A stretch of 64,000 nt of DNA from Eledone cirrhosa (GCA_964016885.1 OZ024743.1:49104001-49168000); one strand, 5' to 3'; positions 1,625 through 55,297 are shown, counted from the first letter of the stretch. The notes: generated by a model from the sequence alone, not told the origin. Program-made: numbers and translations.

Positions 1625-4600
1625 GAAGCCACCGAACATATGACAAAACATTGAAGGAATTCAGTGACCGTTACTATTTGGCTAAAACAATTGAAACTGT
1701 TCGCAATTACATAAAAGAATGCCCAGTTTGCCAAGCTTACCGCAGTGGCTACTCAGCCACTTCCACACCTGCTGGCAAGACTCCATTAGAAAGAGAAGAA
1801 CATGTTGCCGAACTTATGGCAGCCTTACCATTTCCAGAGACCTTGGGTGAAGTAATCAATCACTTTTGGCAAAAGGTATTTCTCATTGATTGGTCCTCCT
1901 TAATCAACTCTTCTTGAGTAGACAACAATGATATTGAGTCTAGCACAATATTCTTTCTAAGCTGCATCGGAATGTGTCCGTGGAGCCACTTTATTGGTGT
2001 TCTGTATATCAAAATGTGAAACCCATGAAAATTTCACTATACATGTCACTACATACATCAAAATATTGCTGCACTAATAATTACAGTAAGAAAACAGTGA
2101 CCTGACACAATTACTAGAGTACCAGATTAAATGCCATGTGTTTTTTTCTGGCTCTCTCTGTCCTCAATTTAAATCCTGCCATGGTCAACTTTGCCTATCG
2201 TTCCTTTTGGGTCAATAAATAAAGTACTAGTCGTAGGCATGGAATTGTTAGAGAAATGTTAGAACATTTAATTAATGAGATGCTTTATTGTATTTATTCT
2301 GGTTCTTTGTATTCAAATCACACTGGCTTATTTAGGTGGAATACTTAATCTTTAGCTTAGTCTATTCTCTTGCAAGCACTCTGACAAGATCTCTGGTTTG
2401 ATAACACCTTCCTCAAACCCATGAGTCTTGGAGGTCCTGAAAAGGGTCTTGGACTCAGCCTTTCTCTCCCTGACAGTAAAAAAAAGGGGGGAAGCATCAA
2501 ACATCCCCTGCCCTATTTACCTGGAAAAGTGATTTGGTGAAGGAGCACAAAACTAATTGAAAATGGTTAAGTATTTTGGTGGTTTACAATGTAGCTGATT
2601 TCTCTCGTACTAATACCATGATATTTTCACCAGATTTGATGGTTTAAAATGCTTTTTTTTAATTTTTGTATATTTCTAGGTGGAAGTTGATATTATTGGT
2701 CCTATCAAGGTGACTGGAGGTTCTACTATGCAAATTATCCTCTGTTTAGATGTCTATTCTTTGTGGCCAGAAGCACGTTTTGTCGAGTATAAAGATGGAA
2801 TCATACCTGTGCCAGAAGTCTTACAGTTTATACTCAGTCTTATTGCGAGGTGAGTGCTTTTCAGATTTACCCCAGTTGGGCTCTATGTTTGATAGAGTGT
2901 AGGCTTTGTGTTTGAGTATTGAGTGTAGGCTTTGTTTGAGTATTGAGTGTAGGCTCTGTGTGTGAGTATTGAGTGTAGGCTCTGTGTGTGAGTATTGAGT
3001 GTAGGCTCTGTTTTTAAGTATTGAGTGCAGGCTCTGTGTGTGAATATAGAGTTGGTTGTGAGTGTGATTATAGAGTTGGTTGTGAGTGTGACTATAGAGT
3101 TGGTTGTGAGTGTGTATTAAATGTTGGTTGTCAGTGTGTATTAAATGTTGGTTGTCAGTGTGTATTTTGAATATTGAGTGTTGTCTGTATGAGTTTACAA
3201 AATATATTGCCAAAATTTAGGAAGCTCTGGTTTCTGCTGTAATGGTTACCACTCTGAAGATGTGTTTCATATTTCAGATATGGTGTCATGAAAACCTTGA
3301 CATTCCGTAAAGAATCATTCAGTTGTAGGAAGATTGCTGGTCGCTTTGATTTACTTACTGATAAAGAACATACCATTGATTTAAAGTTTGGTTGTTTCCA
3401 AGATACAAGTATGTTAACTGTTCTTCTTCTTATTATTATTGTTTTCCTACTAGTGAGGACAGTGGATTGGCAAAAGCATTTGAGCTTTGTGGCATTTGTT
3501 CTAAGTCTTTACATTCTGAGTTCAAATCCTGCCATGGTCAAATTTGCCTTTCATCATTCTAGGGTCAATAAAATAAAGTACCAGTCAAATACTGGGGTCA
3601 ATATTATCCCCCCCCCCCCCCCCCCCCCCCCCCAAATCACTGGTCTTGTGCCTAAATTAGAAATTGTTTTACTTGTGCTCATGTCATAAAAAATGAGGAC
3701 AGTTTTATCAATTATAAAGAAAACTTTTAATTCTGAAAATCATTGGAACATATTTTTTATCTATAACACATAATGCTATTTTGTATAACAGTTGTGTCAT
3801 CTGTTTTTTTCCATTTAATCACGTCATACTTCAACAAGCTTCATAACTCTTACTCTCACTCACTGTCAGTTTCCTTCTTTCTTATTCCTTTTTATTTTCA
3901 TTCTTCTACTTCCACAGAATCTCGTTTTTGTGACAGCAAATAAATACACATCACAAATTATTATATATATAGGCATTCCTTCTCAGCACTGGATTAAAAA
4001 TATAGAGATTTAAAAATATTTATTATGACAATTTATTTTAAAAATCAACCATCTTTTTGTTTAGTTTATTCCTGTCATTTATTGATTGTTATTATCATTC
4101 TCTGTTGTTGATTCTGTATCACTGTGATTGTATTATTGATTAAAATTTAGATGGCATGTGGAAAGATCTAGAAACAGACCTAAGGAAGTTTGCTAAATCC
4201 TATCCTCGCAACTGGCATGAAAGTCTTGACCTTTGGTTGATGCCACATCGAATAAATCGACCGCAAGTTGCTGAATATACTCCAGTATACCTTGTACATC
4301 ACAGGTAAGGGGTTGTAATTGAATTCTTTAACATGTTTGACTCTGTGTTTGTGACTAGTTATATATAGACTTCTTCGGGAAACTACATTTATTAATTAAA
4401 CATGAATGATATTTTGTCTGTTGTAGGGAACCATGTCTACCACCAAGTATATCTTATCGTCAGCCTGGATCCGATTTGGACCCAAACCTCTCTGAATCTC
4501 AGATTCAAGCTATTCAAACGAGAATGATGAAAGTAAGCAAAGGTCTGACGGAGAGTTTGCTGGCAAACACGTCAGAACAGTCTAGCAGTTCAGAGAAAAA

Positions 4601-7600
4601 TGTATCCATTGTGTATTTTTACCCAGGAGAAGTGGTTGATGAAAGTGTACCCACAAATCCTGTTGCTGCTACAGAGCTAAATGGGGAAACTGACCACAAT
4701 GAGCTCCATTCTGATATTATTTTAGACCCTCCAACAACAGAAGACAGTACTATTGTTACTGCCAATACTACTAATACTTCTACTATTAATACTACTACTA
4801 CCACTAATACTACCAATACTACTACTACTACTTCTACTTCTACTGTTACTTCTACTACTACTACTGCCAATACAACTACTGCTACTACTACTACTACTAC
4901 TACTGCTACTCCTAGTAGTAGTAGTAGTAGTAGTAGTAGTGTCACTAACAAAACTTCACTCACTCAAGCCTCCTCCACATCTGCCTCTGTTAAGTCAAAG
5001 AAAATGTCCTCTGCAACTAATGATAAACCTGCCAAACCTCAGCGAGGTCGACCACCATCTTCTCAAACCACTCAAACCTCTGTCGAACAAGACACTAGTA
5101 GTATTGCTGTTGATGACGATGAGTGTTTATCAGGTTCAGAGATGTCGCCTGCTCGCCGTGGACGTAAGAAGAATTATCTTGATGTTGTCAATCGTTATTC
5201 ACCCAAGAAAGGGAACAAACGAAAGAAACGAGAAAATCGGGATGTAAGTAATAATCCCTTTATTTTTTTACAACTTGTGGTAGTAGTGTTGATGCCATGA
5301 TAAAATGTAAAGTGGCTGGCATTAGGAAGGGCATCAAGTCATAGAAACCATGCCAAAATTAAACATATGAGCTGTGGTTCTCTGACTTGTTTAATCTCAG
5401 ACCATGACAACCCATCCAACACATGTCAGCATGGAAAATAGACTTAAAACCATGGTGACATTGTAGGGTTGCAAACAGGTACAAACCAGAGACCAGTTCA
5501 GAATGCTTGCTTGCAACAGAGTGTGGTCCACTAAAGGCACCCAAGCGCCTGGTGGAGGTGTTAAACTAAATGACAAAGTTAGCTTCAATGGGATATGAAC
5601 TTAGAGCTCAAAGAACTGAAAGAGGTATCGCACAGCATCTTATCTGATGCTTGAGCAATTCTGCCAATCCACAACCCATTCCTCATTCATCAATTAGTAA
5701 CTTATTGATGCAAATTTTTGCCTGTGTCGATGACAACATTATTACCCTTAATTGAATAATGATTGGGCAGTGGATTGGCAGTATCGGTAGAGGGTCAGAC
5801 GCCATGCTTTGACGTATAGAGTTACGGCCCTTGCCATTCTGAGTTCAAATCCCGCCGAGGTTAACTTTGCCTTTCATCCTTACGGGGTCGATAAAATAAA
5901 GTACCAGTAATGTACTAGGATAATTGCTGCCCTTGTGCCAAAAGTAGAAACAATTATTACCCTTAGTTTAGAAATAAAGGTTTTTAAGTTGAAATCAGTG
6001 TCTAGTTATGTATATATCCAGAAATAGGTCTTGTTGTTGGTCAAAGATCAAAATAGTGTAGATATAAGAATTGTAAATATCTGAAAAATATTACTTATTT
6101 CTGACAAAGTTGGTGGATTGGCATAATCATTATCAATAAAATGCCTTTCAGTATTTGTTCTAAGGTTTTGTCTTCTGAGTTCACCTGTAACTACATAAGT
6201 ACTAAATTGTATTGCCACTTGCCTCTCCTTGGACATCAGTTGTGTGGAGATGGTGAACTACCTCTTGGTCAGTTGCTGTTCTACTGTAAAATAACCTTGC
6301 CAAGGCCTGCACCCTGCAAAGGAACAGATACATTATGAAAACTTTAACTGATAGAGACTTGACTGTTTATAAACTTTCATTATCATTAACATCATTGTCG
6401 TTTTTATGTCCACTTTTCTACGTTGGCATGGGTTGGATGGGATGTTTTGAGACAATGTTTTACAGTGGGATGCCATTCCTCATGCCAACTCTTTTAGTTG
6501 TCTCTTATGTAATGTATGGATATGGTGTACCTATTCTAAAAACTAGGATATATATTCATCATCATCATTTTACTTGCCACGCTGACATGGATTAGATTGA
6601 CCATCATGGATCAAGTCAGTTCTTATTCAGAGTCATTACCCCAATAGATGAGTTTGGAATCATATTTCATTTGTATGATCCATTTTAGACATGGTTTCTT
6701 TGATTAGATGCCCTTCTTAACAGCAACCACTCTACATAGTGTTCTAGGTGAATTTGGTCAATTTTATTAAATTTAAGAATAATGAAGAAATGTTACAAAT
6801 TATAGTTATCTCTCTATTTCTCATTTTCCAAAATGTCACCTCACCATTTTCCACTCAGGTACCATTAGATGACTACTACCTCGCTCTCAAGCTCTATGTT
6901 GAACAGAAACGTTACCCACCTGGTATAAAAGATGACTATAAAAGAGTTATCCGGAAGATGGCTCAGAATTATGTTATTCAAGATGATGAAATGTATTATA
7001 AATCAGGCTCCAAGCTAAAGAAAATTGTTATGGACGAACTGGAACGCTTCAAACTTCTCAAAGCTGCTCATGTGTTGGACAATGGTGAGTATGGTTTGAC
7101 CGTAGTGAATAAACCTTTCTACAGTGATGGCATTTATAATTAAGCATTTATTACATCAAATTATATGTTGAAGAGTGTGGTACTACATGGTAGTGAGATC
7201 TGATTATTGAATGTAGAAAACAGACATGTTTGTGTGTTAAAGATGTTTGCTTTAGAATCACTTCTGGATTCAGTCAACTTTCTATTGGAGAGTCATATCG
7301 CAACAATGATCTGTTCTGTTCACTGTACATCTCTTATTACAACTATTCCATATTAATTTTATTGTTGAATTATGGTCAGCCCCAGTCAAGCTGATCTATT
7401 GCAACCAAATGCTTCCAAATACCCTATCTTATGTGCATCTACTATGGCCTACTTAGTTGAGAGACCCAATGCATCACCTAGTTTAACACCACTACCTGGC
7501 TTTTAGGCGTCTTTAGTAGAATCTATTCTGTTGCAAGCATTTGGACCAGGTCTGCACTTTGAAGATACCTTCTAACTCACCACCAATCTCAGGGGCTCTG

Positions 7601-10600
7601 TCAAGTATCATGGGCACTACCAGCCCTCCACATTGACTAAACATTAAAAATGTGGGGAGAAACAAAAGACATTGTAAACTCTGTAATGCAACACTTTGTA
7701 ATCTGGAGTGCGGCATTCATGCAAGTATGTTGAAGTAATTCCTTCTTTAGTTGAATATGATTTGTTATTTCTTCATAGGAACTCACTTGGGCCGATTAAG
7801 GACTTTAGATCGCCTAAACGACTATTATTGGAAAGGTATGACAATGGACGGTGCTGCCTTAGTGAAGACATGTCCTGTTTGTGAACATGGCAGTGACCGA
7901 AGAAAATCTGAAGCTGACACCAACCCTGCTCAAGAAAGTTTCTTGAATTTAGTCAAGGCTGTAAGTGTCTCTCCTGCTATTTCTGTGTTCACCTCTACAA
8001 TCTCTGTCTTTCTCTTTATATATGTCTTACTCTCAATAACTTTACTGTTGTCAACACAGACATTTGTCACTGCATATCTGCTAGTTGACATCTGCTGTGG
8101 CTCTCTACACTGGTAGTGTGGTGTGGCTTTTGATACTATCAGTGTGGAGTGATTCTCAATGTTAGTAGTGTAGTCTTGTTCTAAACTACTGAATATTTCC
8201 AATGTATCTCTCCTCAAATGTAGGGTAGACTCCAGCCCTATCAACCAAGCAATATCTTTTTAATCATCCTCACTTTTTAAACTACTGAACTGTTAATATT
8301 ACCTGATATAGCTGTTGTGTTTTAAACCATTGTCAACACAACATGATATAACTGTTGTGTTTTAAACCATTGTCAACACAACATGATATAACTGTTGTGT
8401 TTTAAACTATATTGTCAACACATGATATAGCTGTTGTGTTTTAAACCATTGTCAACACAACATGATACAACTGTTGTGTTTTAAACTATTGTCAACACAA
8501 CATGATATAGCTGTTGTGTTTTAAACCATTGTCAACACAACATGATACAACTGTTGTGTTTTAAACTATTGTCAACACAACATGATATAGCTGTTGTGTT
8601 TTAAACCATTGTCAACACAACATGATACAACTGTTGTGTTTTAAACTATTGTCAACACAACATGATATAGCTGTTGTGTTTTAAACCATTGTCAACACAA
8701 CATGATATAACTGTTGTGTTTTAAACCATTGTCAACACAACATGATATAGCTGTTGTGTTTTAAACCATTGTCAACACAACATGATACAACTGTTGTGTT
8801 TTAAACTATTGTTAACATAACCTGATATAGCTGTTGTGTTTTAAACCATTGTCAACACAACATGATATAGCTGTTGTGTTTTATTATCATTAGGCTGAAG
8901 CAGAACCGGAACCACTGAATGAAGAGGTCCAAATCAAGTTATATGAAATTATCAAGCAGTTTCACTTGACTGGTGCCAAGCCAGCAGATTTGACCACTGA
9001 GGAAAATGACTATGCTGACAGAGAATCTCCAAAGTATCGTGTCAATGGTGGTCAGCTTTACTACACAGAAAACCAAACTATTGGACGTTTACGTAAAGTC
9101 CTGATGACAGCAACTGAGAAACAGAATGCTGTTACAGAATCACACATTCTCAGAACAGGTAATATATCTATCAATCAATAAATCACTACTACCTTTTTCT
9201 TCTTCACTTTGTTGTTTATGTACACTAACTTTACACATCCAACTGAGCATGCTTGATTCCTTTCTAACCTTCACATATCCTCCACATTCGCTACCCATGT
9301 CTCACTACCATATACATTGCACTATGTATATAAGCATCATACAACTTATTCTTTGCCAAGAGAGAGAATCCCTTGAGAAGTTGAGGAAGGGTCTCCCTGA
9401 ACTTCCCAATGTTGTTATTTAATGGGTAAGGATGTGTGGAGTGGGGACCTAACAGGATTAAAATTATAATCTGTGAAAGAGCATAAGTGCTTTTCACATA
9501 GAAGTCACTAGCCATACCTGAAGAGGAGACATGTGCCACCAGGTTATCTGTGTACCCTGAAACAGTATATTAAATGTAGAAGATGAAAAATAATTCTGTA
9601 GAATAGTTATGGTTTTCTTACTTCCTACTGCCAATATATAGTAATATAAAAAGTAGAGAGAATGAGATACAGTAGTACTGTCAATATGTAAATAATTTAA
9701 CCCTGTGTTCATTTTACCTCTTATATGAAGTGAGTTAATATTTTGAATCCACCAACCCAGTATTCCACCGATGTTTCACTATATCCTGCCAACCCATTAT
9801 TCCATTTTGTTGCACATTTCTGTTTATTAGTGTTATTTACACTGCTTTCTGTAAGAATCAGTGATTGTTTTATATCATTGCTTTAGCTGGAGCTAAGGCA
9901 TTGCCATGACTTTTTCAAGTTAGTACTTTTTTTTTTCTTTTCAGTTTTAATTAATGAACATAATTTTTTTTATGTGATTTCTATGCAAACACCCAGTGTT
10001 GGAAACTACACACACGACAAGGGGTGGGTCAAGATTCAATGGGTCAACTCTGTAGTTACCACACCCCTTATATAAACTGTGGAGCAAGTCTGTATTTACT
10101 ATATCCTCTATAATGGTAGTTAACCGTATCATGTCTCTGTCTTACCCCAGGTATTCATCGTGGAGTGGAACGGACCAAAGAACTCTTGCATGGTAGCTAC
10201 TATTGGATTGGAATGAATCGTGATCTGAAGGAATTCCTTGAAAAATGTTGTTTAACCCGAGTCTTCCCTGAAGATAAGAAACATAAATCCCAAGAAGAGA
10301 AACTCTCAAAGTTTGCTGAGTTCTTCCAAATGGATATCAGCCCTTTCATTGTAAGTAGTCAAAACTATTTCATAATCAATGTGTTAACAAACATGTCATA
10401 CCTCTTACCTTTACAAGGCTGTTGGTTTGAACATCTATTTTATGTACCCAGTGAAATTCTAATATTTGTAGACGAACCATCAATCATCAGAACATTAGAT
10501 TAAATGCCTTGGTATATGTTCGAGCTCTCTGCACTCTGAGTTCAATCCTGCTAAGACCAACTTTGCTTTTCTTCTTTTTGGGGTCGATAGATAAAGTACC

Positions 10601-13600
10601 AGTCCATGGATGGTGGATAATCAGAATTATTAAAGTCAGGCAAGATGCTTTGCAATACCTGATGTGGCTCTGTACATTCTGAAATCCTGTCACCCCAAAA
10701 ATGGTGACACTTCTACCAGGAGTTGCCCATGGTAGACAGCATCAGCAGTTTAAAAACCAATGGAAACATTTTCCTTGGTCTGATCTGATGATCAGTTCAT
10801 TTCCTTTTTTATTTACGTGTCAACTGACTCTACAGGTTCTGCACATATGGTGTTACCTTTTAATACACTCACAGACCCAGCTAGCTTGTATAATACATGT
10901 CCCTATATACAGATACAAGTGTTTACCATATAACATATAACGAAGGGCACCATAATAAGATAAAAGTCAGATAGAGAAATTATGCAAGAACATCCAGTCC
11001 ACATTAAAGTGGTCTTGTAGGTGTCATGACAAAAAGCACCCAGTCCACGCTGTAAAGTGGTCGTGTAGGAGACACAGTAAAAAGGCTTCCAGTTCATACT
11101 GTAAATGTGGGTGGTGTTAGGAAGGGCATCCAGCTGTAGAAAACCTGCCAGATACAGTCCTATATGAGCGAGACATGGTCACCCAAACAATCTTGCCTCA
11201 AGTGGGACAATTTCCAGTCTAACCCATGTTAGCATGGAAGATGGACATTAAATGGTGATGAAAATATGCTAATCTTGAAGAATAACGTAATTTCTCTAAT
11301 CTTGTTGAGATTGCTGTAAAAAGTATATATGACCAATCAGTTGTATTTATGTTGCAATAATTGTTTCTATTTTTGGTACAAGACCAGCAATTTGAAGGAA
11401 AGGGGAAAGTTGATTAAATCACCTCAATGCTTTACTGGTACTTTATTTTATTGACCCCGTAAAGATGAATGACAAAGCTAACTTAGGCAGGGTTTGAACT
11501 CAGAGCATAAAGGGCCATAACTATGTGCTGCAAAGCTTGTTGTCCAACGCTCTACTGATAATCCACCACCCTACTTTATGTTGTAATGATAAAAAGAATG
11601 ATTATTATACTGACCAGTACATAGAATTACTTGGCTGATTGAACTAAAGTGTTTATAGTCCAGTTATAAGTCTGACTGTTATTGTTATATGAAACAGTTT
11701 GGGAGAAGATAAAGTGATGTTATTTCTGATTCTATAATTATTGTATTTCAGAGCTTAGGAGAACAGACAGCTGAGCTAAAAGGTGAAAAAGAGGAAGGTG
11801 CAACAGTGCTGACATCTGTTGGTCTTAAAGTGAAGAGTCCTTCCCCTCCTCCAACAGAAGAACTTGAAACAAAAATATTGACCAATCAAGAAGAGCGTAA
11901 TATAGAAGATGTCTTCTTAACTTCGGTACAGGTTGTGGAATCAGAGAATATAACCACACCTACAGAAGAAACAACTCTGACAGAAAACGATGCTATTTTG
12001 CCAGCAGAGATCACTGATTCCAGTAAAGCAATCGAGGTTTTGGCACCTTGCATTAAGACATACAATGAGGTTGCCTGTAATACGGAGGATAGTGACAATC
12101 TTGATGAGGTTGATGATGTGGAACTGACAGAACCAAAAACAACTGTGAAGATAAAAACTCAAACTCCATCACGGCGCCACCAAAAGAGTGTTACTCTACA
12201 TGTACCAGAAAAAACTGTTGAAGATCACTTGAGTGAAGAGGTGCAAAGTGCTGTTGACAATATAAAACCTGATGTTAGCGATATCCATATTGCTGATGAT
12301 GTGAGTGCACTAACTTCAATGATTCAGAGAAGACAAAATGCAGCAGATAGTAAGATACAGGAAACCATAGTGTCAACAGTTGAAACCGATGTGGAGATGA
12401 CAAAAGCAGAAGAGATTGTCAAAGAGATTGAACTGGCTGAAGCTGAAGAATTTGAAGAGGCTGTGGAAGGAGGCCAATCTGAAAATGCTGCATCAGTAGA
12501 CATCAAACCATTGTTGACAAAAAAAACAAAAGGAAAACGGATGAAACGAAAGAAACAACTTGCTTGTAATATTTGTGGATTAATGTTTGGAGGACCGGTA
12601 ACATTGCAAGGTGTGTATATATCTCGTTCTATACTCTGTTTATAATCTCTATATATCTGTCTATATTCTATTAATGTAATGAGTGTATATCTGTCTATAG
12701 TCTGTTAATATAGGGGATGTATAACTGTCTCGAGCCTTTATATATAGCTATCTACAGCCTATTAATGTAAGGTGTATATATATATATATAGTTAAAACTT
12801 AGATGGGAACAAAAACAGAGAGGCAGTACAAATAAGAGTTTATTAGGTTCATGCTTTTGAGAGTGGGGGGGAGGGGCGTTTCGGGCATAAGCCCTTCATC
12901 AGGAGAAAAGTGGGTAGGAAGAGAGTTCCGAGGGTGGTGGAAAGACAAAAAAGGGAGGACAAACGATTGAAGAAGTACAAATAAAAATAAAAATAAACAA
13001 GTGGTGGAAGGGTGTGAGGCAGGTGGAGTTAGGAGAGGGAGGCGGGTGGTCCGAGTGGGGAGGGCTGAAGGTGCTGTTTGTGTAGGTGTGTGTGAATGTG
13101 AGAGTTGGGGGAAGAACGAGGTTCCATGTTCAGGAAAAGGTATGTGCGTGGGGTGAGGTGTAAGTCGGTGCGTGTGGATTCCGGAGGCTGAGTGTGTATA
13201 TGTGGGGATGCGCACGTGTGTGTTTGTGTTTATACGTGGCGTGGTTCAAAAAAAAAAGTGAGTGTTTGTTCGTGGGTAAGTTTCTAAGGTAGTTCCGTGT
13301 AGTGTGCGGTGAGATGTTGGATATTTTTTGTGTTATGGAGTGGATGGCTGGAAGGATGACCGGTGGTGTGGAATCCAATGTTGGTGGTGGTCGGAAGTGG
13401 AGAGATGTGGGGTGTGCGCGCAGCAGGAAATGGTCAGAGGGTCAAGGCAGGGTGAAGAGATAGCAGGAGAGGAGGATGACAGGTGGAGAAAGGGTCTGTA
13501 TGTGGTGAGGACTGGGTCTCTGTGTGTGCGTAGGTGCGGTGGACAGGAGAGAGGATGGGTAGGTGTGAAAGGTGGGGAGATGGGGTGTATATTAGTAGAG

Positions 13601-16600
13601 GTGTTAGTGGGATGTGAAGGGGTGTAGGTGGAGCGGGGAGAGAAAAGTGTTGGGGACGGAGGAGGGAGTGTAGTGTACTGGTGTGTGTGTGTGGTAGAGG
13701 GGTTGTTAGTATTACTGGTGGTGGGGAAAGGCTTGAATGCGGGTGTGTAAGTGGGGGTTAGTGGTGGTTGGGTGTGTGTGTGTTCATGTGCATGAGGTTG
13801 GGGGGATGTTAGTTGTGGATGTGTGGGTGAGGGTTAGTGGTGGTAGTAGGGTGTGTGGATAGTGTGAGTGCGTGTATATATGTACAGGTAGGTGTGAGTG
13901 CGTGGGTGTTAGGGGGATGGGTGGGGATGTTAGTATTGTTAGTTGTGGGGTGGGGCAGTGAAAAGAAGGAGTGTGTTAGTGGGGGATGTGGGCGGTCGAA
14001 GGCGAAAGGAATAGGGGTGTGGATTTGTAGGGTGAAGATGGTGTGTTGTTCGACCGTGAGGCGGGTGTTCTGTGGCATTGGAGTATGCCACAGATGGGGG
14101 AGCTAAAGTGGCGGGCGATGGGGGAACTCCTGCCGAAACGAATATCCTGGAGGTGTTCAGTGAAACGGTCCGCCAGGCGACGTCCATTCTGTCCGACGTA
14201 GGTAGCGCTGCACTCCGTGCAGTGAAGTCCATGGACAAGGTTGGAGGAGGTGCAGTGGAAGGCGTGCCGGACAGAGAGAGAGTGGCCGTTGGGATCCTGG
14301 AAGGTGATGGTGTTGGTGATGTGGAAGAAACAATTGTCAGCAATTAAATGTATTAAACTAAGATTTGATTGTTCTATATTTTGTATCTCGGCTCTGTAAT
14401 ACATTTGATAATTTACATTGAGCCTTTTCTCTTACTGGTAACTGGCTAGTGCTTAGTACTACACTCCATATTTATAATTATATATAAACCATATATAAGT
14501 ATAAATATTATTATTATTACTATATATATATAGTAGTGGACAACAGAACAGTGTTGTTGTACTGTGGTGGAGGTGATAGTAGTGGCAGAGTGTAGGATTG
14601 TGATATAACATTGATAATGTTTACTTTTTCTATTGCAAGTTCATATGAGTACACACTCGGGTCAAAAACCTTTTGGTTGTGATGTTTGTGGCAAGAGATT
14701 TACTGAACGGAAGTATGTTCGTATCCATATGAGACGTCACACTGGAGAGAAACCATATTTGTAAGTAGAATTTCTTGTCACAGATTGATATCACAAACTT
14801 CCTAATCCTAACCACCCCTTGTTTCTTTATTTTTTCAAAGTGTGTCTACAGCAACAAGCATTTAAGGCCATTCCACTTCAGGCCTGACAAGATTCTCTAT
14901 TATTTTACCATATTATTTGCAACCCCTCACCAATCTTTCCATCATCTTTAGCCATGTCTTTCTTGGTTTTCTCCTTCCTCATTCATTTCCATCACTCCCC
15001 TCACTCAGTCACTTTCATCCTTCCTCAACACATGACATAACCATTTCATTTCTCTTCACAACATTCATCTCAGGTTTTATTCCTATCATTCTCTGCAATT
15101 CATTGTTTGTCTTCCTCTCTCTCAGTGATACTCCACTCAGTTACCATTCTCTTTCTTTACTGCTCCATATTCATTACCCATGTCCCTCACACATGAAGTA
15201 TACTTCTCTTCAGTTTCAGTGATACTCCCCCTCCACATTAACACACCCCTCAGAACCTCTTCCACTTCTCACTTGAGATACTGTTGCAGACTCTGATCAA
15301 TTCTCTCCAATCAATATGTCACTGAGGTAACAAAATATTTTCACACCTTCCACCTCGATACCATTCCCAAGATCCTGCTCAACATCCCCTCCATCTGTAG
15401 AGCCCCTATAGACACTTTACATTGGACGTATCAATGTGTTCTTTCCTCTTTTTTTTTATGATGGAAGGTTGTGATGATGAAAATTTAACTGTTATTTCTA
15501 GCAAGATGAGCAATCACGTTTAGGATTTCTCATCTTGTTAAAATTGTTATCTGTCCAGGCACATGTTGTTTGATGTTATTGTTACAATATGACACAGATG
15601 TAGCAGCACAGACATATGTTCATCATCATCATCTTTACCATTTTTCCATGTTCGCATGGCTTAGATGAAACTTCTTCAATTCAGCATCTCCAATTGTTTC
15701 TTTCCTTTATCACCTCCTTTGTGAGATGTAGTTTCTTGACATTTTTCACCACTTCTTCCTACGTCTTTCTCTTTCTTGACCGTTCTCTTTGACGTCATCC
15801 TTCTACTAGGAACGCCTAGCACTTCTTCAGTCAACAACCATCATCCATGGTGAATTGGCAGTATCGGTAGAGGGTTGGACGCCTTGCTAGGGTGGTGGAT
15901 TGGCAGTATCGGTAGAGGGTTGGACGCCATGCTAGGGTGGTGGATTGGCAGTATCGGTAGAGGGTTGGACGCCATGCTAGGGTGGTGGATTGGCAGTATC
16001 GGTAGAGGGTTGGATGCCATGCTAGGGTGGTGGATTGGCAGTATCGGTAGAGGGTTGGACGCCATGCTAGGGTGGTGGATTGGCAGTATCGGTAGAGGGT
16101 TGGACGCCATGCTAGGGTGGTGGATTGGCAGTATCGGTAGAGGGTTGGACGCCATGCTAGGGTGGTGAATTGGCAGTATCGGTAGAGGGTTGGACGCCAT
16201 GCTAGGGTGGTGGATTGGCAGTATCGGTAGAGGGTTGGACGCCATGCTAGGGTGGTGGATTGGCAGTATCGGTAGAGGGTTGGACGCCATGCTAGGGTGG
16301 TGGATTGGCAGTATCGGTAGAGGGTTGGACGCCATGCTAGGGTGGTGGATTGGCAGTATCGGTAGAGGGTTGGACGCCATGCTAGGGTGGTGGATTGGCA
16401 GTATCGGTAGAGGGTTGGACGCCATGCTAGGGTGGTGGATTGGCAGTATCGGTAGAGGGTTGGACGCCATGCTAGGGTGGTGGATTGGCAGTATCGGTAG
16501 AGGGTTGGACGCCATGCTAGGGTGGTGGATTGGCAGTATCGGTAGAGGGTTGGACGCCATGCTAGGGTGGTGGATTGGCAGTATCGGTAGAGGGTTGGAC

Positions 16601-19108
16601 GCCATGCTAGGGTGGTGGATTGGCAGTATCGGTAGAGGGTTGGACGCCATGCTAGGGTGGTGGATTGGCAGTATCGGTAGAGGGTTGGACGCCATGCTAG
16701 GGTGGTGGATTGGCAGTATCGATAGAGGGTTGGACGCCATGCTAGGGTGGTGGATTGGCAGTATCGGTAGAGGGTTGGACGCCATGCTAGGGTGGTGGAT
16801 TGGCAGTATCGGTAGAGGGTTGGACGCCATGCTAGGGTGGTGGATTGGCAGTATCGGTAGAGGGTTGGACGCCATGCTTTGACGCATAGTTACAGCGGTT
16901 GCCATTCTGAGTTCAAATCCTGCCGAGGTTAACTTTGCCTTTCATCCTTACAGGGTTGATAAAATAAAGTACCAGTAATGTACTGGGTAATTGCTGGCCT
17001 TGTGCCTAAAGTAGAAACAATTATATGTCTGTACCAATTGCAATCTTTGCTCCTAAAAACTACATCTAATTCCTCTTATACCTATATTTTTCTCTCAGCT
17101 TATCCACGTTTCAACATTCACACATTCAATATTTTGGTCTATATTACCTGTTCCCTTTTATTTTAGTCTATATTACCTGTTCCCCTTTTTTTTTGTCTAT
17201 ATTACTTGTTCCCTTTTATTTTGGTCTATATTACCCGTTCCCTTTTATTTTGGTCTATATTACTTGTTCCCTTTTATTCATTGAGATTTTCCAATGAAAG
17301 TTTGTTTCAGTGGAAAATTTCAAGTGAAAAATGTCTAACTTTGATCTTTAATTTTCAGGTGCAGTGTTTGTGGTAAAGGTTTTCCCAGGACCCAGTCTCT
17401 ATTAGCTCATATGTCAGTCCATGAGAAGGACAAGGATCACATGCAGAAGTGTGAAATATGCAATCGACCATTTGCTTCTGATAATCGGCTGAATGCACAT
17501 ATGGAAGCCAAGCATCCTGCAGTTCCTAAAGTTTACAAATGTGCAGAGTGCAGCCGTGTGTTCACTGCAATGAGTAAGTAATATAACACTTAATTCTTTT
17601 GATACCAAACCAACCCTATTTTTGCAATACAAAGCTGTTTGTTTTAAAGTATTTATATTTATCTAAAACCTGCCCTCATAATTCTATGTAAGAACCTTTG
17701 TTATGCTCCAAATACCAGATAAATAATTAGAAAGTTAGTTACATTACTAAATCACTCCAAATCCTTGCTTATTTGAAAATCATAGGTAGTGTTTTTATTA
17801 GAAATGGTAATGAAAGGGATAATTCTTTCTAATTCTTCACTTCAGTATGGTCATCTTTGCCCCTGCATTTTCTGTTTTGTATAAAGGCAACAAATAGTTA
17901 TTGCTGCAGTCATATTCTTCCACTTTTAAAGGCAAAGCTGAGTACTTTGCATGCCCTAGTCTGTATTGCTAATTTGGTCTATTCCTACTTGATGAATCAA
18001 TGGTGAACAGAAGTTATGGTACCCAAGTGTAGAAATAGTTAGAAAACAATCTCTACCATGAATATATCAAGCCAGTATAGATGACAAAGAAATAGGGAAG
18101 AAACAGTTACCTCACCTGACTTGAGTTAGTAATAATCTATTTATGTGGGTGAACTGGCAGAGTTGTTAAGGTGTCAGATTAAATGCTATGTGGTATTTGT
18201 TCTGGTTCTCTGCATCCTTGAATCCCACTGATGTCAACCTTGCCTTTCATCATTTTGGAATTGATAAATAAAGTACCTCTAGGAGTGCAGGGATGGGCAG
18301 AATTGTTAGAGGGACATTGGACAGGACACCTTGTGGTATCTGTTTTAGCTGTTAGAGGGACATTGGATAGGACACCTTGTGGTATCTGTTTTGGTTGTTA
18401 GGGGGACATTGGACAGGACACCTTGTGGTATCTGTGTTGGCTCTATGCATTCAGAATTGAAATTCCACCTCCTATCATTGTAAAAATGGTAACATGAAAG
18501 ACTTGGGCCTCCTATCATTAAAACACCCAAAAGACCTCCTTCTGGGGCTCCAGCTTGATTTACAAAGGTGTAATAATTACAACAATCTACTTTTTTCTTT
18601 CTTTCTAGGGAGTCTGAAACGTCATATTGAAGCCCATATGGGTTTAAAACGCTACGAGTGCCAGCATTGCGGGCGTCGCTTTTTACGGAAAGAATATCTA
18701 CGTAGCCATGCAGCTCAGCACACAGGAGAAGTATACCCTGCTCCAAAACGAAAGAAGCCAGACTTGCCATGTCCTCAACTCAAGATAACTGTTGGTTCTA
18801 ATACCTATTCTGTTTTTACTTCTGATGCCACTGCTGCTGTTACTCCTGATCAACAAGAAACCTGGGTCGCTGCTGAACTCGTCCAGAATGAAGAACAGAT
18901 ACAGGACCCAACCGAGACAGCACGAGCAACAGAGAGTGTTGAGCAAAGTGTTGAGGCACCTCTATTTTTTATTGCTCCAAACCAAGTTGAATATGAGGTT
19001 GAATGTACTTCGAGTGGTGGTACTGAACTTACTGAGGCAGATCTCACCGCTATTAACATTCTTGCTCAAGCTACACTCAATGCTCCTAACACTCTGCCAC
19101 TCACATGA
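1625..19108 (+). CDS. 5'-partial multi-exon gene: domesticated Gypsy/Ginger-type integrase (GIN1-like) with 3 HHCC zinc-binding modules, AT-hook and 6 C2H2 zinc fingers
   Basis: Exons 1625-1875, 2680-2849, 3278-3408, 4151-4304, 4427-5243, 6859-7084, 7779-7960, 8894-9158, 10151-10350, 11752-12610, 14640-14760, 17359-17573, 18609-19108 (TGA). All introns are GT-AG with matching phases, giving an open frame of 4091 nt. Motifs: [11 protein letters not shown]...CPVCQ; [12 protein letters not shown]...[10 protein letters not shown]...RYGV; NWHESL...[15 protein letters not shown]; KPQRGRPP; six CxxC-x12-H-x3/4-H fingers with HSGQKPF and HTGEKPY linkers. Confidence 0.85.
2680..4450 (+). CDS. integrase catalytic-core-like (rve) exons of the fusion gene
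   Basis: Spliced translation [34 protein letters not shown]...[18 protein letters not shown]...[58 protein letters not shown] follows the Gypsy integrase pattern. Confidence 0.8.
2894..3182. repeat. compound intronic minisatellite (short GT-rich units)
   Basis: Repeats of gagtattgagtgtaggctctgtgtgt, followed by tatagagttggttgtgagtgtg variants. Confidence 0.8.
5766..5957 (+). mobile_element. tRNA-head SINE (full-length copy)
   Basis: Closely similar to the copies at 1031, 16844, 27117 and 41459; B-box GAGTTCAAATCCC. Confidence 0.8.
8304..8882. repeat. 40-bp minisatellite, ~14.5 copies, each unit with an internal inverted repeat
   Basis: Unit tgatatagctgttgtgttttaaaccattgtcaacacaaca. Confidence 0.95.
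11000..11260 (+). mobile_element. RTE-family 3' tail element
   Basis: ggtgttaggaagggcatccagctgtagaaa...aacccatgttagcatggaagatggacattaaatggtgatg, shared with the other RTE tails. Confidence 0.65.
11359..11570 (-). mobile_element. tRNA-head SINE (antisense copy)
   Basis: Reverse complement of the SINE consensus (actggtactttattttattgacccc...tttgaactcag). Confidence 0.75.
12559..18722 (+). CDS. six-finger C2H2 array of the fusion gene (spread over 4 exons)
   Basis: [21 protein letters not shown]; [21 protein letters not shown]; [21 protein letters not shown]; [22 protein letters not shown]; [21 protein letters not shown]; [21 protein letters not shown]. Confidence 0.9.
12795..14345 (-). mobile_element. 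Penelope-like retroelement fragment (GIY-YIG endonuclease plus 3' pseudo-LTR), antisense within an intron
   Basis: ORF 13976..14404(-) reads [36 protein letters not shown]...PIARHF. The 3' end has a CTGATGA...GAAA motif and AATAAA, and abuts (TA)n. Confidence 0.8.
12870..12910 (-). ncRNA. hammerhead-ribozyme-like core in the Penelope pLTR (probably degenerate)
   Basis: Minus strand CTGATGA-a-GGGC-ttat-GCCC-GAAAC; no clear NUH cleavage triplet follows. Confidence 0.5.
15849..16878 (+). repeat. 45-bp tandem array (~23 copies) derived from the SINE 5' head
   Basis: Unit gggtggtggattggcagtatcggtagagggttggacgccatgcta, nearly invariant, continuing into a SINE body. Confidence 0.95.
16844..17023 (+). 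mobile_element. tRNA-head SINE body terminating the array
   Basis: ttgacgcatagttac...gagttcaaatcctgccgaggttaactttgcctttcatcc...gtagaaacaatta. Confidence 0.8.
17137..17278. repeat. pyrimidine-rich minisatellite, 5 copies
   Basis: Repeats of gtctatattac(c/t)tgttccc(c)ttttatttt. Confidence 0.85.
18303..18437. repeat. 3-copy tandem repeat of a SINE-head-like sequence
   Basis: gttagagggacattggacaggacaccttgtggtatctgt x3. Confidence 0.75.
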
Positions 19109-52750: not shown

Positions 52751-55297
52751 ATGGATGATGAGTGTTATAATTTAGATTCTTTGGTTGAATTTTTAGGAGA
52801 GGAGTCATCGGGAGATGAAGAAGTAAAGGACCAAAGTACTGTCGTTTCTTCCAATAATGGAAGTGAATCTCACACAAGTCAGACTATATCGTCTCCCAAG
52901 ACATTTAACAGTAATGTACTGGGAAATGATCAGCCACATCCCAACAATGATTCTCAGGAAAATATTATGGATGAGCTACAGAAAATGAGAAAACGTATGC
53001 AGGAACTTGAACAGAAACTGCAACAACAAAACCCAATACCGTCACAGCCAGTAAATACAAATCTGCCTCAAACCAACACTGATACTAAACACAATCGTTC
53101 GTTTAATACCGAAATTAATCTGTTTGCATCAGAAGGTCAGTCGAAACAAATTTCTTGTTCTAAAAGTACACAATCTCCACCATTAGTTTCTACCAAACTC
53201 TCTACTTCACCCGTGAATAATAGCAGTGAAGCTGCGAATCTGAAAACTGAATTATTTGGTGATAGCGATAGTGATTGGGAGGATTTAGAAGGAGAGAAAC
53301 CAAAATTGAGCGAAGAAGGTAATGAACTGAAGAAATTACTGAAAAAGTCTGCGAACGAACGTATAGCCCACACAGCAACACATGACGTGTCAAGTCTTAG
53401 AGCGAAGGCTGTGAGTAAGAAATCACCGGTTCAAACTATCATCAATATTAATAAATCTCAGTTTAATCAACAAATTGGCCCTAATAGAAAGATTTCTACA
53501 AACAAAACTAATGTTGATACGAACTGTGATATTGATCCTTTCTCTGGAATCCGTATTATTAATCCTAAAGTATCGTCTTCGACCATGAAAACACGAATGC
53601 AAGACAGGAGAATGATTAAATTATCTCACATCCATAGTAAAAATGGCAAGGAATTATCTGACAGTGACTGGGTCACTATTGCAGTTGTGGTACACAAAGG
53701 TGAACCAAGGAAATCTTCCAAAGGAAATACTTATAGCATTTGGAAACTGAATGATTTACAAAACTGTGAACAAAGTGTTTCGTTTTTCTTGTTCGGGGAA
53801 GTATATAAGTCTCACTGGAAATTAGCTGTTGGTACTGTAATTGGTTTATTAAATCCTAATATGATGGATAAATCTGAAAAAAAGCAATCGGATATTGCTT
53901 TCACCATAAGCCATGCTAATAAGTTAATGATAATTGGTGAATCTGTTGACCTAGGAACATGTCAACAACGGAGGAAAAATGGTACCCCATGTACAAATAT
54001 TGTAAATAAGATGCAAGGAGAATCCTGTGTCTATCATGTAACTGCTGCTTACAAACTGACTTGTGCCAAGAGAAGTGAATTAAACAGCTACACTGGTGTC
54101 ACCCCTAAATGCTTTAACAAAAAGCCCTTGCCAAAAGGTGGTATGTTTTTCTATCAGGGTAAATCATTCACATCATTACCCTTAGGCAATACACAACAAA
54201 AAGATAAAATTACTGTGAGCAAGCTGCAACATCAACAGAATAAACTGGGCCAAAGTAAGCTGTCGACAATGAGTCTTCAGAAGATGAGTAACAAAGATCA
54301 AAATATTCTTAATAAATTATCATCAGATAAAGAACAGGCATTCTTAGATATATTAAGTACTCCATCAATTGGATCAATGAACCTTGTGAAACATTTACTG
54401 AAGAAGGAAAAATCTGAAGCGCAATCTAAAGCAAATGTCACTGTTGTTTCCATTAGTCCATCAGATCTTCTCAAAAAACACAAACAACAAATGGAAGTGA
54501 AAAGGACAGCCACCAAATTCTTTAATCCAGTATTAGGAAGGGGCTTAGAGTCTGGATTAAATGTTAACTTAGATTCTGTCAAATCAAGATCATCAAATTC
54601 TAGTGAACTATTAAAACACATAGCTATCAAGAAAATCCAAAATAGTGGAGGACTTCAAAAAGAAGATCCAAATGCTATCCGAAAACAAACCAATGACACA
54701 AAGGTGGTTGAAAAGATAAAAAAAAGAGTCTCCCAAGATATACAGCCAACAATAGAAAAGGTGTCTGCTTCACAACCTCCTCTCGCTAAAAGGTCAAAAC
54801 TGTTAGGAAATGTTGACTTAAATTCACCAGAAATAAAGAAACTGATGAAACTAAAATCATCCCATGCTGGTGCCATTACAGAAATGGAGAATGAGAAACA
54901 GGAAAAATATTTCAATGCTTTGGAGAAAAAAGAGGAATGTGAAGTGAAAATGCAGTCTGTCACTGAAATAAAATGTGCATTGTTCAGTTGCAAGTTGTGC
55001 GGCTATACTGCATTATCAGTTGGCGATAGATGCAAGAAAGAACGTCATCCTGTGAAGAAACACCAGGGTATGAAGCGATTTTTCAGATGTCGCAAGTGTA
55101 AAACACGGCGCATTGCTTTTACAATGATACCTAAAGATCCTTGCAGTGAATGTGGTGAACACAATTTTGAAAAGACATCTATGATGCCAGAAAAATCTGG
55201 TCCTAAACTCCAATCTGAACAACTCTCATTACGGGGGGATGAATCAAAGAATTTAAACAGTTTATCTTATCATATAACTGGTTCCATCGAACTCTAA
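52751..55297 (+). CDS. MCM10: DNA replication factor Mcm10, single coding exon, ~848 aa
   Basis: Uninterrupted ORF. N-terminus MDDECYNLDSLVEFLGE; OB-fold (DPFSGIRIINP...SDWVTIAVVVHK...WKLNDL...FFLFGEVYKSHWK...GLLNP); CCCH finger (TCQQRRKNGTPCTNIVN...CVYH); C-terminal Zn domain (EKYFNALEKKE...CKLCGYT...KRFFRCRKCK...CSECG). Confidence 0.95.
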   Translation: MDDECYNLDSLVEFLGEESSGDEEVKDQSTVVSSNNGSESHTSQTISSPKTFNSNVLGNDQPHPNNDSQENIMDELQKMRKRMQELEQKLQQQNPIPSQPVNTNLPQTNTDTKHNRSFNTEINLFASEGQSKQISCSKSTQSPPLVSTKLSTSPVNNSSEAANLKTELFGDSDSDWEDLEGEKPKLSEEGNELKKLLKKSANERIAHTATHDVSSLRAKAVSKKSPVQTIININKSQFNQQIGPNRKISTNKTNVDTNCDIDPFSGIRIINPKVSSSTMKTRMQDRRMIKLSHIHSKNGKELSDSDWVTIAVVVHKGEPRKSSKGNTYSIWKLNDLQNCEQSVSFFLFGEVYKSHWKLAVGTVIGLLNPNMMDKSEKKQSDIAFTISHANKLMIIGESVDLGTCQQRRKNGTPCTNIVNKMQGESCVYHVTAAYKLTCAKRSELNSYTGVTPKCFNKKPLPKGGMFFYQGKSFTSLPLGNTQQKDKITVSKLQHQQNKLGQSKLSTMSLQKMSNKDQNILNKLSSDKEQAFLDILSTPSIGSMNLVKHLLKKEKSEAQSKANVTVVSISPSDLLKKHKQQMEVKRTATKFFNPVLGRGLESGLNVNLDSVKSRSSNSSELLKHIAIKKIQNSGGLQKEDPNAIRKQTNDTKVVEKIKKRVSQDIQPTIEKVSASQPPLAKRSKLLGNVDLNSPEIKKLMKLKSSHAGAITEMENEKQEKYFNALEKKEECEVKMQSVTEIKCALFSCKLCGYTALSVGDRCKKERHPVKKHQGMKRFFRCRKCKTRRIAFTMIPKDPCSECGEHNFEKTSMMPEKSGPKLQSEQLSLRGDESKNLNSLSYHITGSIEL

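Follow-up and report, generated by a model that had tools for sequence, protein, structure and literature searches.

Host genes made from Gypsy-like integrases have previously been described in vertebrates and, in 2026, in crustaceans. Transposase capture has also produced the KRAB-transposase fusions of vertebrates, which are chimeric regulatory genes. The vertebrate integrase genes, GIN1 and GIN2, derive from Ginger1 transposases and carry an N-terminal YPYY-HHCC module and an integrase core (PMC2836005, PMC3424704). The crustacean gene, Imagin, is known from malacostracans, where it encodes a cytoplasmic protein of 585 aa whose dead core has been proposed to act as a scaffold (PMC12863088). 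Ginger1 itself is characterized by YPYY, introns and OTU or Ulp1 domains, YPYY being found in some Gypsy lineages as well (PMC2836005). In yeast, a homologous finger lies in the sequence-specific DNA-binding domain of Spt10 (PMC1807970), and repression of TP53 by ZBTB11 depends on its HHCC residues (PMC5384227). Transposon-derived transcription factors of Octopus, Aplysia and Lingula have been surveyed, with six other families reported and, in the sections available, neither Ginger nor Gypsy nor H2C2 named (PMC10027918); ZBTB11 is highlighted in a screen of UniProt for TE-domain fusions, and the supplement to that screen may list proteins of the family described below (PMC12062965).

The gene considered here has 13 of its 14 coding exons in a window of 64,000 nt (the whole stretch of Eledone cirrhosa DNA that was analysed) and belongs to a real, old and undescribed family of host genes, of the kind that arise when an integrase-like transposase is captured. 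Its protein consists of a YPYY-HHCC module, an integrase core, a linker, two more modules, an acidic linker, six C2H2 fingers and a tail. How does this compare with the known systems? GIN1 and GIN2 retain the GPY/F-type end and have neither fingers nor additional modules, and the family lies outside their clade. Imagin, as described, is likewise a single-copy, multi-exon host gene with YPYY, H2C2 and a core without DDE, under purifying selection and with a proposed Ginger1 origin, but it has one module and no described C2H2 array, and is cytoplasmic and crustacean; its independence from the present family rests on range and architecture, no Imagin sequence having been identified among the tree rows. 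With Ginger1 the family has in common an N-terminal YPYY, an H2C2 finger and a core in a stand-alone, intron-bearing gene (PMC2836005), whereas the Eledone family is single-copy and lacks the triad, GPY/F, OTU and Ulp1. Spt10 is fungal, with a GNAT domain and, as described, neither integrase core nor C2H2 array. SCAND3 and KRBA2 are, like the present genes, chimeric regulatory genes formed by transposase capture (PMC3575427); these and the KRAB-transposase fusions are, however, tetrapod and much younger, derive from Ginger2 or other superfamilies, and carry KRAB or SCAN. ZBTB11 also combines an integrase-like HHCC with a C2H2 array in a transcription factor, but with one HHCC, a BTB domain, 12 fingers and no integrase core (PMC5384227, PMC11290676), and is the best functional analogue, probably of convergent origin. 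Full-text searches including six locus or accession identifiers, with subscription journals mostly outside their scope, found no description of the gene, and literature searches found no characterized orthologue with such an architecture; in all database entries looked up, family members are labelled "uncharacterized", "hypothetical", "unnamed" or generic zinc-finger. The features of the gene are listed below, in window coordinates except for exon 1.

G000:C4:49069277-49069574, outside the window: exon 1; ATG, YPYY part and first His of module 1
1625..1875, + strand: exon 2; second His and CxxC of module 1, linker, core start (PF17921, E 3e-8)
2680..2849, + strand: exon 3; integrase core, first acidic position kept (D187 at 2689-2691)
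3278..3408, + strand: exon 4; core, second Asp position is Arg (R250 at 3306-3308)
4151..4304, + strand: exon 5; C-terminal helices of the core, third catalytic position without Glu in either alignment register
4427..5243, + strand: exon 6; core end, post-core helix, Thr/Ser tract, optional AT-hook, basic KKGNKRKKR stretch
4757-4940, + strand: Thr/Ser microsatellite tract, in exon 6
5043-5054, + strand: optional RGRP AT-hook, in exon 6
6859..7084, + strand: exon 7; module 2, YPYY half
7779..7960, + strand: exon 8; module 2, HHCC half (PF17921, E 3e-8)
8894..9158, + strand: exon 9; module 3, YPYY half
10151..10350, + strand: exon 10; module 3, HHCC half, adjacent CC at its end (PF17921, E 1e-7)
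11752..12610, + strand: exon 11; acidic disordered linker, basic KRMKRKK stretch, start of finger 1
14640..14760, + strand: exon 12; end of finger 1, and finger 2
17359..17573, + strand: exon 13; fingers 3 and 4 and start of 5, junctions backed by orthologous proteins
18609..19108, + strand: exon 14; fingers 5-6, basic KRKK, conserved tail motif, stop
18980-19084, + strand: tail motif YEVEC...LTEADLxAINxLAQA, in exon 14

A preliminary description of this DNA had proposed a spliced open frame of 13 exons. The single frame and its introns stand: all 12 introns within 1625-19108 are GT-AG with matching phases, and the 13 window exons yield 1362 codons in a stop-free frame with a single terminal stop. 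The exon count does not, since the gene has 14 coding exons encoding 1462 aa over a span of ~54 kb, with the ATG exon outside the window. The first window exon opens in phase 1, partway through an HHCC finger. Exon 1 (also L005:5277-5574) was located by searching six 10-kb upstream stretches with the module-2 exon, the match lying 34.7 kb before the window; it runs from an ATG to a phase-1 donor, and its translation agrees with the O. bimaculoides orthologue at the N-terminus. Intron 1, between the end of the ATG exon and 1625, is 36,050 bp long. Over their whole lengths, the Eledone protein and Octopus bimaculoides LOC106874323 share 88% identity, which marks the window as octopod DNA. Two small CG-rich patches (L005:5130-5240 and 4270-4400) precede exon 1 and contain the words CCGGAA and GGCCAT/ATGGCC; they could mark a housekeeping-type, perhaps bidirectional promoter.

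Splicing is shown by the skipping of introns in contigs from two sequencing runs, neither recorded as RNA, their RNA status being a guess. In run X1, from a related organism, a 4469-nt contig covers exons 4-8 and 9-12 at consecutive record coordinates (two contig records, treated as one because they agree in length and depth), and the core and the fingers are thus on one spliced molecule. The transcripts therefore did not split the integrase and C2H2 exons into separate genes: the X1 contig links the exons of core, modules and fingers. Two contigs of run X13 show no difference from the window, one with exons 4-6 and the other with exons 6-12, interrupted at the Thr microsatellite. In both runs, ~805-810 bases stand ahead of exon 4, about what exons 1-3 (719 coding bases) and a short leader would give. 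Complete orthologues of 1515 and 1560 aa are encoded by Logan contigs of 5.6 kb and 5.0 kb.

The gene is single-copy in genome G000. A DNA search gave one match, a protein search with the module-2 exon gave one match at E<=1, and one with the core exon gave one strong match, the next being at E 0.08; such searches give lower bounds on copy number. Multiple near-identical copies, as a TIR-bearing Ginger element might have left, were thus not found in one DNA and two protein searches. With a spliced transcript, a single copy in G000 and distant orthologues that have a conserved core, the locus behaves as the host gene it had been proposed to be, and it is almost certainly a domesticated one.

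Of the two neighbours named earlier, MCM10 was confirmed; tests of two ORFs did not confirm LENG8. In animals, genes for MCM10 typically contain introns, and here MCM10 (window 52754-55294, + strand) is one uninterrupted frame of 847 aa with all four Pfam domains, which suggests that it may be a retrogene. The introns of the gene harbour two tandem arrays, one of 40 bp x 14.5 at 8304-8883 and one of 45 bp x 22.9 at 15848-16878 (99% match), the latter made from the head of a high-copy dispersed repeat that is also found at ~1030-1210 and 5765-5950.

The three HHCC modules are well supported: Pfam Integrase_H2C2 is above cut-off on three window exons (exons 2, 8 and 10) and is found three times in each of the five full-length orthologues (5/5). 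The unit, however, is larger than had been described, each "HHCC" being part of a module of ~110 aa that comprises YPYY and HHCC and is divided by an intron. This phase-1 intron splits all three modules in the same glycine, two residues before the second His. In a module tree, 27 of 33 family modules group together, weakly (SH-aLRT 82); together with the common intron, this fits internal duplication after the intron was present. Module 1 begins at residue 6 and aligns to P0052 from the N-terminus of the latter. Module 3 ends in adjacent CC rather than CxxC; the CC form occurs in cephalopods, Haliotis, Batillaria and Littorina, and CxxC in Gigantopelta and Solemya, and zinc binding of module 3 may differ between the two.

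The integrase core had been called "full". A core is indeed present, by BLAST and by fold, but its catalytic triad is gone in 21 of 21 family rows (full D-D-E in 0/21 vs 6/6 references). The first Asp is found in 5/21 rows (cephalopods and Lingula), the second in 0/21, and the third column, which aligns ambiguously, is acidic in 11/21 (Glu in 8, Asp in 3) and not in the octopod. The octopod core keeps, besides the first Asp, a QDTNG remnant of the PQTNG motif. Downstream of the core, the GPY/F motif occurs in 0/20 family rows. A HMMER/Pfam scan recovered Integrase_H2C2 and C2H2, but rve had no match on the octopus core at E<=0.01, and a weak one in Haliotis (E 4e-4, below cut-off). The identity of the octopus core therefore comes from BLAST to an Ulp1-bearing Ginger-type protein (E 1e-18; for Lingula, E 2e-31) and from the fold. 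In an AlphaFold2 model of the Lingula orthologue (57 rows), the core and the three modules are confident, with core pLDDT mostly 85-97, and the best structural matches are the foamy-virus and Ty3 integrases (core vs the foamy-virus core: Z 18.8, rmsd 3.8, 168 residues). The core is thus predicted to retain the integrase fold, a claim based on the Lingula orthologue, the model of the N-terminal 855 aa of the octopus protein (3-row alignment, pLDDT 36) having been set aside.

Core identity to the Eledone protein is 92% in O. bimaculoides, 67% in Sepia and 30-40% in nine gastropod, bivalve and brachiopod rows; for the linker, the corresponding values are 60%, 30% and 3-7%. Between the core exons and run X1, the 24 differences listed (of 38) comprise 20 synonymous and 4 non-synonymous ones. 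The neutral expectation is ~72-74% non-synonymous, and if all 14 unlisted differences were non-synonymous, their share would be 47%. Judged by these identities and substitutions, the core is under purifying selection.

The six C2H2 fingers reported for the Eledone protein are all there. The first three are joined by TGEKP-type linkers, and the protein has three basic KRKK-type stretches. Finger 5 has Arg-Ser at +2/+3 and finger 6 has Arg at -1 in 20/20 mollusc rows; Lingula has fingers 1-3 in common with the cephalopods, but not fingers 4-7. Two features given weight in the preliminary description are less constant: the RGRP AT-hook, which was overstated, is matched in only 5/20 family rows, and the Thr tract, which in the alignment of cephalopods is confined to octopods, is not a conserved feature. 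The C-terminal tail motif is 97-100% identical among cephalopods and 40-60% in other molluscs, and is recognizable but weak in Lingula (E 0.002), where it is modelled, with low confidence, as a helix. An Atlas search returned generic integrase clusters only for the N-terminal part and no usable match for the tail.

Full-length members of the family have the order module, core, module, module, 5-7 fingers, tail. Word searches retrieved them from octopus, a Sepia pharaonis cluster, one cephalopod-like protein, three Haliotis, Batillaria, Littorina, Gigantopelta and Solemya; in one of these searches, one of 11 matches was an unrelated ZNF574 and not a family member. A profile of the N-terminal ~860 residues, run against 1.84 billion representatives, gave 13 matches at E<=4e-64, followed by a gap to 5e-48. 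The 12 of these 13 that could be named come from Haliotis, Babylonia, Batillaria, Lymnaea, Patella, Sinanodonta, Pecten, Nucella, Bulinus, Littorina, Plakobranchus and Lingula anatina. None of the 136 other listed matches pairs a core with at least two fingers, and no annelid, arthropod or deuterostome member was present among 20 of the best 150 matches that were checked by name. A word search with the Lingula N-terminus returned Gypsy Pol-type proteins only, a weak hint that annelids and other phyla lack the family. P0036, a sea-urchin protein, was rejected as an orthologue, having no core and no tail match, and fingers that score below the unrelated ZNF574 control.

The family is thus kept in three mollusc classes, and since it reaches gastropods, bivalves and a brachiopod, its age had been understated. 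Its origin is no younger than the split between molluscs and brachiopods, which is Cambrian or earlier, and a tamed transposon likely gave rise to it over 500 million years ago, before that split. Batillaria and Littorina have two paralogues each. The second caenogastropod paralogue (P0022, P0023, P0031 and P0173) differs in the contact residues of fingers 5-6 in those rows that have fingers, possibly reflecting a change of target.

From what kind of element did the gene arise? In a mixture-model tree of module 1 plus core with 64 rows (of 87, drawn from 109 eligible; 23 near-duplicate or Gypsy-like rows were left out), the family forms one clade (100/100) on a long branch, with Lingula basal and the cephalopods as one clade. 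This comparison, which had been suggested earlier, places the family neither in the clade that unites all 9 RT-bearing rows (99/90) nor in a GIN-like clade (98/94) that contains the fish GIN1 (P0051) and P0044, which we take to be GIN1. It falls in a polytomy with stand-alone YPYY proteins, most of them unnamed and some bearing OTU or Ulp1. P0049 appeared as sister to the family in quick trees and not in the mixture-model tree. The family proteins scanned contain no RT or RNase H Pfam family, and 6/6 Pfam scans found no OTU or Ulp1. The protein starts with a YPYY module, unlike a Pol-embedded Gypsy integrase, and this is more in keeping with a stand-alone transposase. When G000 was searched with a Ginger-like protein, the matches were uninterrupted, multi-copy integrase loci, at least 149 in number; among the 149 of 2356 candidates that were scored, none was a Ginger copy bearing introns. 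Ginger1-5_HM, GIN1 and GIN2 have three introns in common (PMC2836005), and the Eledone gene has introns at codons 100, 184, 240, 284 and 335. Taken together, the sequences favour a Ginger1-like origin, which we consider probable. Elsewhere in the tree, P0054, a protein of 477 aa with one module and a core with degenerate-looking catalytic positions, is sister to P0057, in which D-D-E is intact, and is possibly another domestication.

What might such a protein do? Integrase cores dimerize, and this, together with canonical fingers whose contacts are kept and with the precedents of ZBTB11, Spt10 and Imagin, leads us to read it as a nuclear regulator. Before molluscs and brachiopods parted, a stand-alone YPYY-type transposase would have lost its mobility; two further copies of its N-terminal module would have arisen within the gene, and the finger array and tail would have taken the place of its SH3-like GPY/F end. 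The fingers, in molluscs above all fingers 5 and 6, would read a fixed DNA motif, the dead core would dimerize or act as a scaffold, the part that BTB plays in ZBTB11, the HHCC modules would add contacts to DNA or partners as in Spt10 and ZBTB11, and the tail helix would dock a co-regulator. The result would be a nuclear, sequence-specific regulator in which the dead core serves as a dimer or scaffold domain. Against it counts that Imagin, the nearest analogue, is a cytoplasmic protein (PMC12863088). Function as a transcription factor is quite likely from these features; dimerization through the dead core, argued by analogy, is about an even call. The reading as a whole, namely a single-copy mollusc/brachiopod host gene with a dead integrase fold, three YPYY-HHCC modules and six C2H2 fingers, likely derived from a Ginger1-like element and likely a sequence-specific transcription factor, is one that we hold to be probable.

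Several other explanations deserve weighing. The protein might control transposons, its modules and dead core binding Ginger or Gypsy ends or integrases and its fingers tethering a silencing complex. Integrase-derived domains could conceivably bind element ends or mix into integrase multimers, integrase-like elements occupy at least 149 loci in G000, and Keightley et al. raise recognition of viral DNA by cellular HHCC domains as a possibility (PMC5384227). A single copy under purifying selection, with finger contacts kept across molluscs, is however unlike an arms race, and the authors of the Imagin study argue likewise for their protein (PMC12863088), so that we consider this role unlikely; the decoy idea put forward earlier has little support. 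Some C2H2 arrays bind RNA, and a nucleic-acid-binding scaffold outside transcription, such as a germ-line RNA-binding protein, would find its model in Imagin, which has the same YPYY-HHCC and dead core and accumulates in the oocyte cytosol (PMC12863088). Imagin is described without fingers, though, and six fingers with conserved contacts, three of them TGEKP-linked, and three KRKK-type stretches make such a role quite unlikely.

The similarity to ZBTB11, which also has an N-terminal integrase-like HHCC and a C-terminal C2H2 array (PMC5384227, PMC11290676), might instead mean that these genes are its invertebrate orthologues, with an integrase core in place of BTB. This is very unlikely: BTB was found in none of 6/6 family proteins scanned, there are 6-7 fingers rather than 12 (fingers being compared by count and description only), and the best 150 profile matches include none with one module and a 12-finger array. 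Finally, a still-mobile Ginger element or a still-catalytic domesticated recombinase could be imagined from the first Asp and QDTNG remnant of the octopod and from the 1-4 introns that Ginger1 transposase genes may have (PMC2836005), but one copy, the ~54 kb span, loss of the second Asp in 21/21, and a tree in which cephalopods form one clade and the brachiopod is basal have largely refuted it, and we regard it as extremely improbable.

The reading as a sequence-specific regulator can be taken further, in a form that we advance tentatively and rate somewhat below even. The dead core would then be a dimerization domain in the place of BTB, KRAB or SCAN, and the triplicated YPYY-HHCC a second, sequence-reading DNA-binding array beside the C2H2 fingers; the genes would represent an undescribed lophotrochozoan transcription-factor family, among the oldest integrase domestications, and YPYY-HHCC an overlooked animal regulatory domain that has been captured repeatedly. 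The family is distinguished by its age, by having its module in triplicate and by combining a dead core with a finger array. It offers a test case for the role of a catalytically dead integrase core in a host and for the target of a cellular HHCC module. The cephalopod repertoire of C2H2 fingers is known for lineage-specific expansion, and here is a deeply conserved C2H2 gene that can be annotated in cephalopods.

The idea of repeated capture comes from other proteins: fish, crayfish, sea urchin and a second family from bivalves also have the module, in tandem arrays fused to THAP, CaRF and C2H2 domains. In a separate fusion with several modules, represented by P0038, P0046, P0065, P0067 and P0112 (the one looked up is from Salminus, a teleost), three YPYY-HHCC modules accompany two THAP domains and a D-Tyr-tRNA deacylase-like domain. 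Two CaRF/ALS2CR8 domains alternate in P0074, from the crayfish Cherax, with two modules that group with a GIN1-like module (SH-aLRT 86). The sea-urchin protein P0036, from Lytechinus, has at least four HHCC modules and 8 C2H2 fingers without a core, and looks convergent. Lastly, P0043, P0053, P0056, P0061, P0063 and P0088, of which the one looked up is from the bivalve Dreissena, form a second family with 2-3 modules, at most three fingers and no core.
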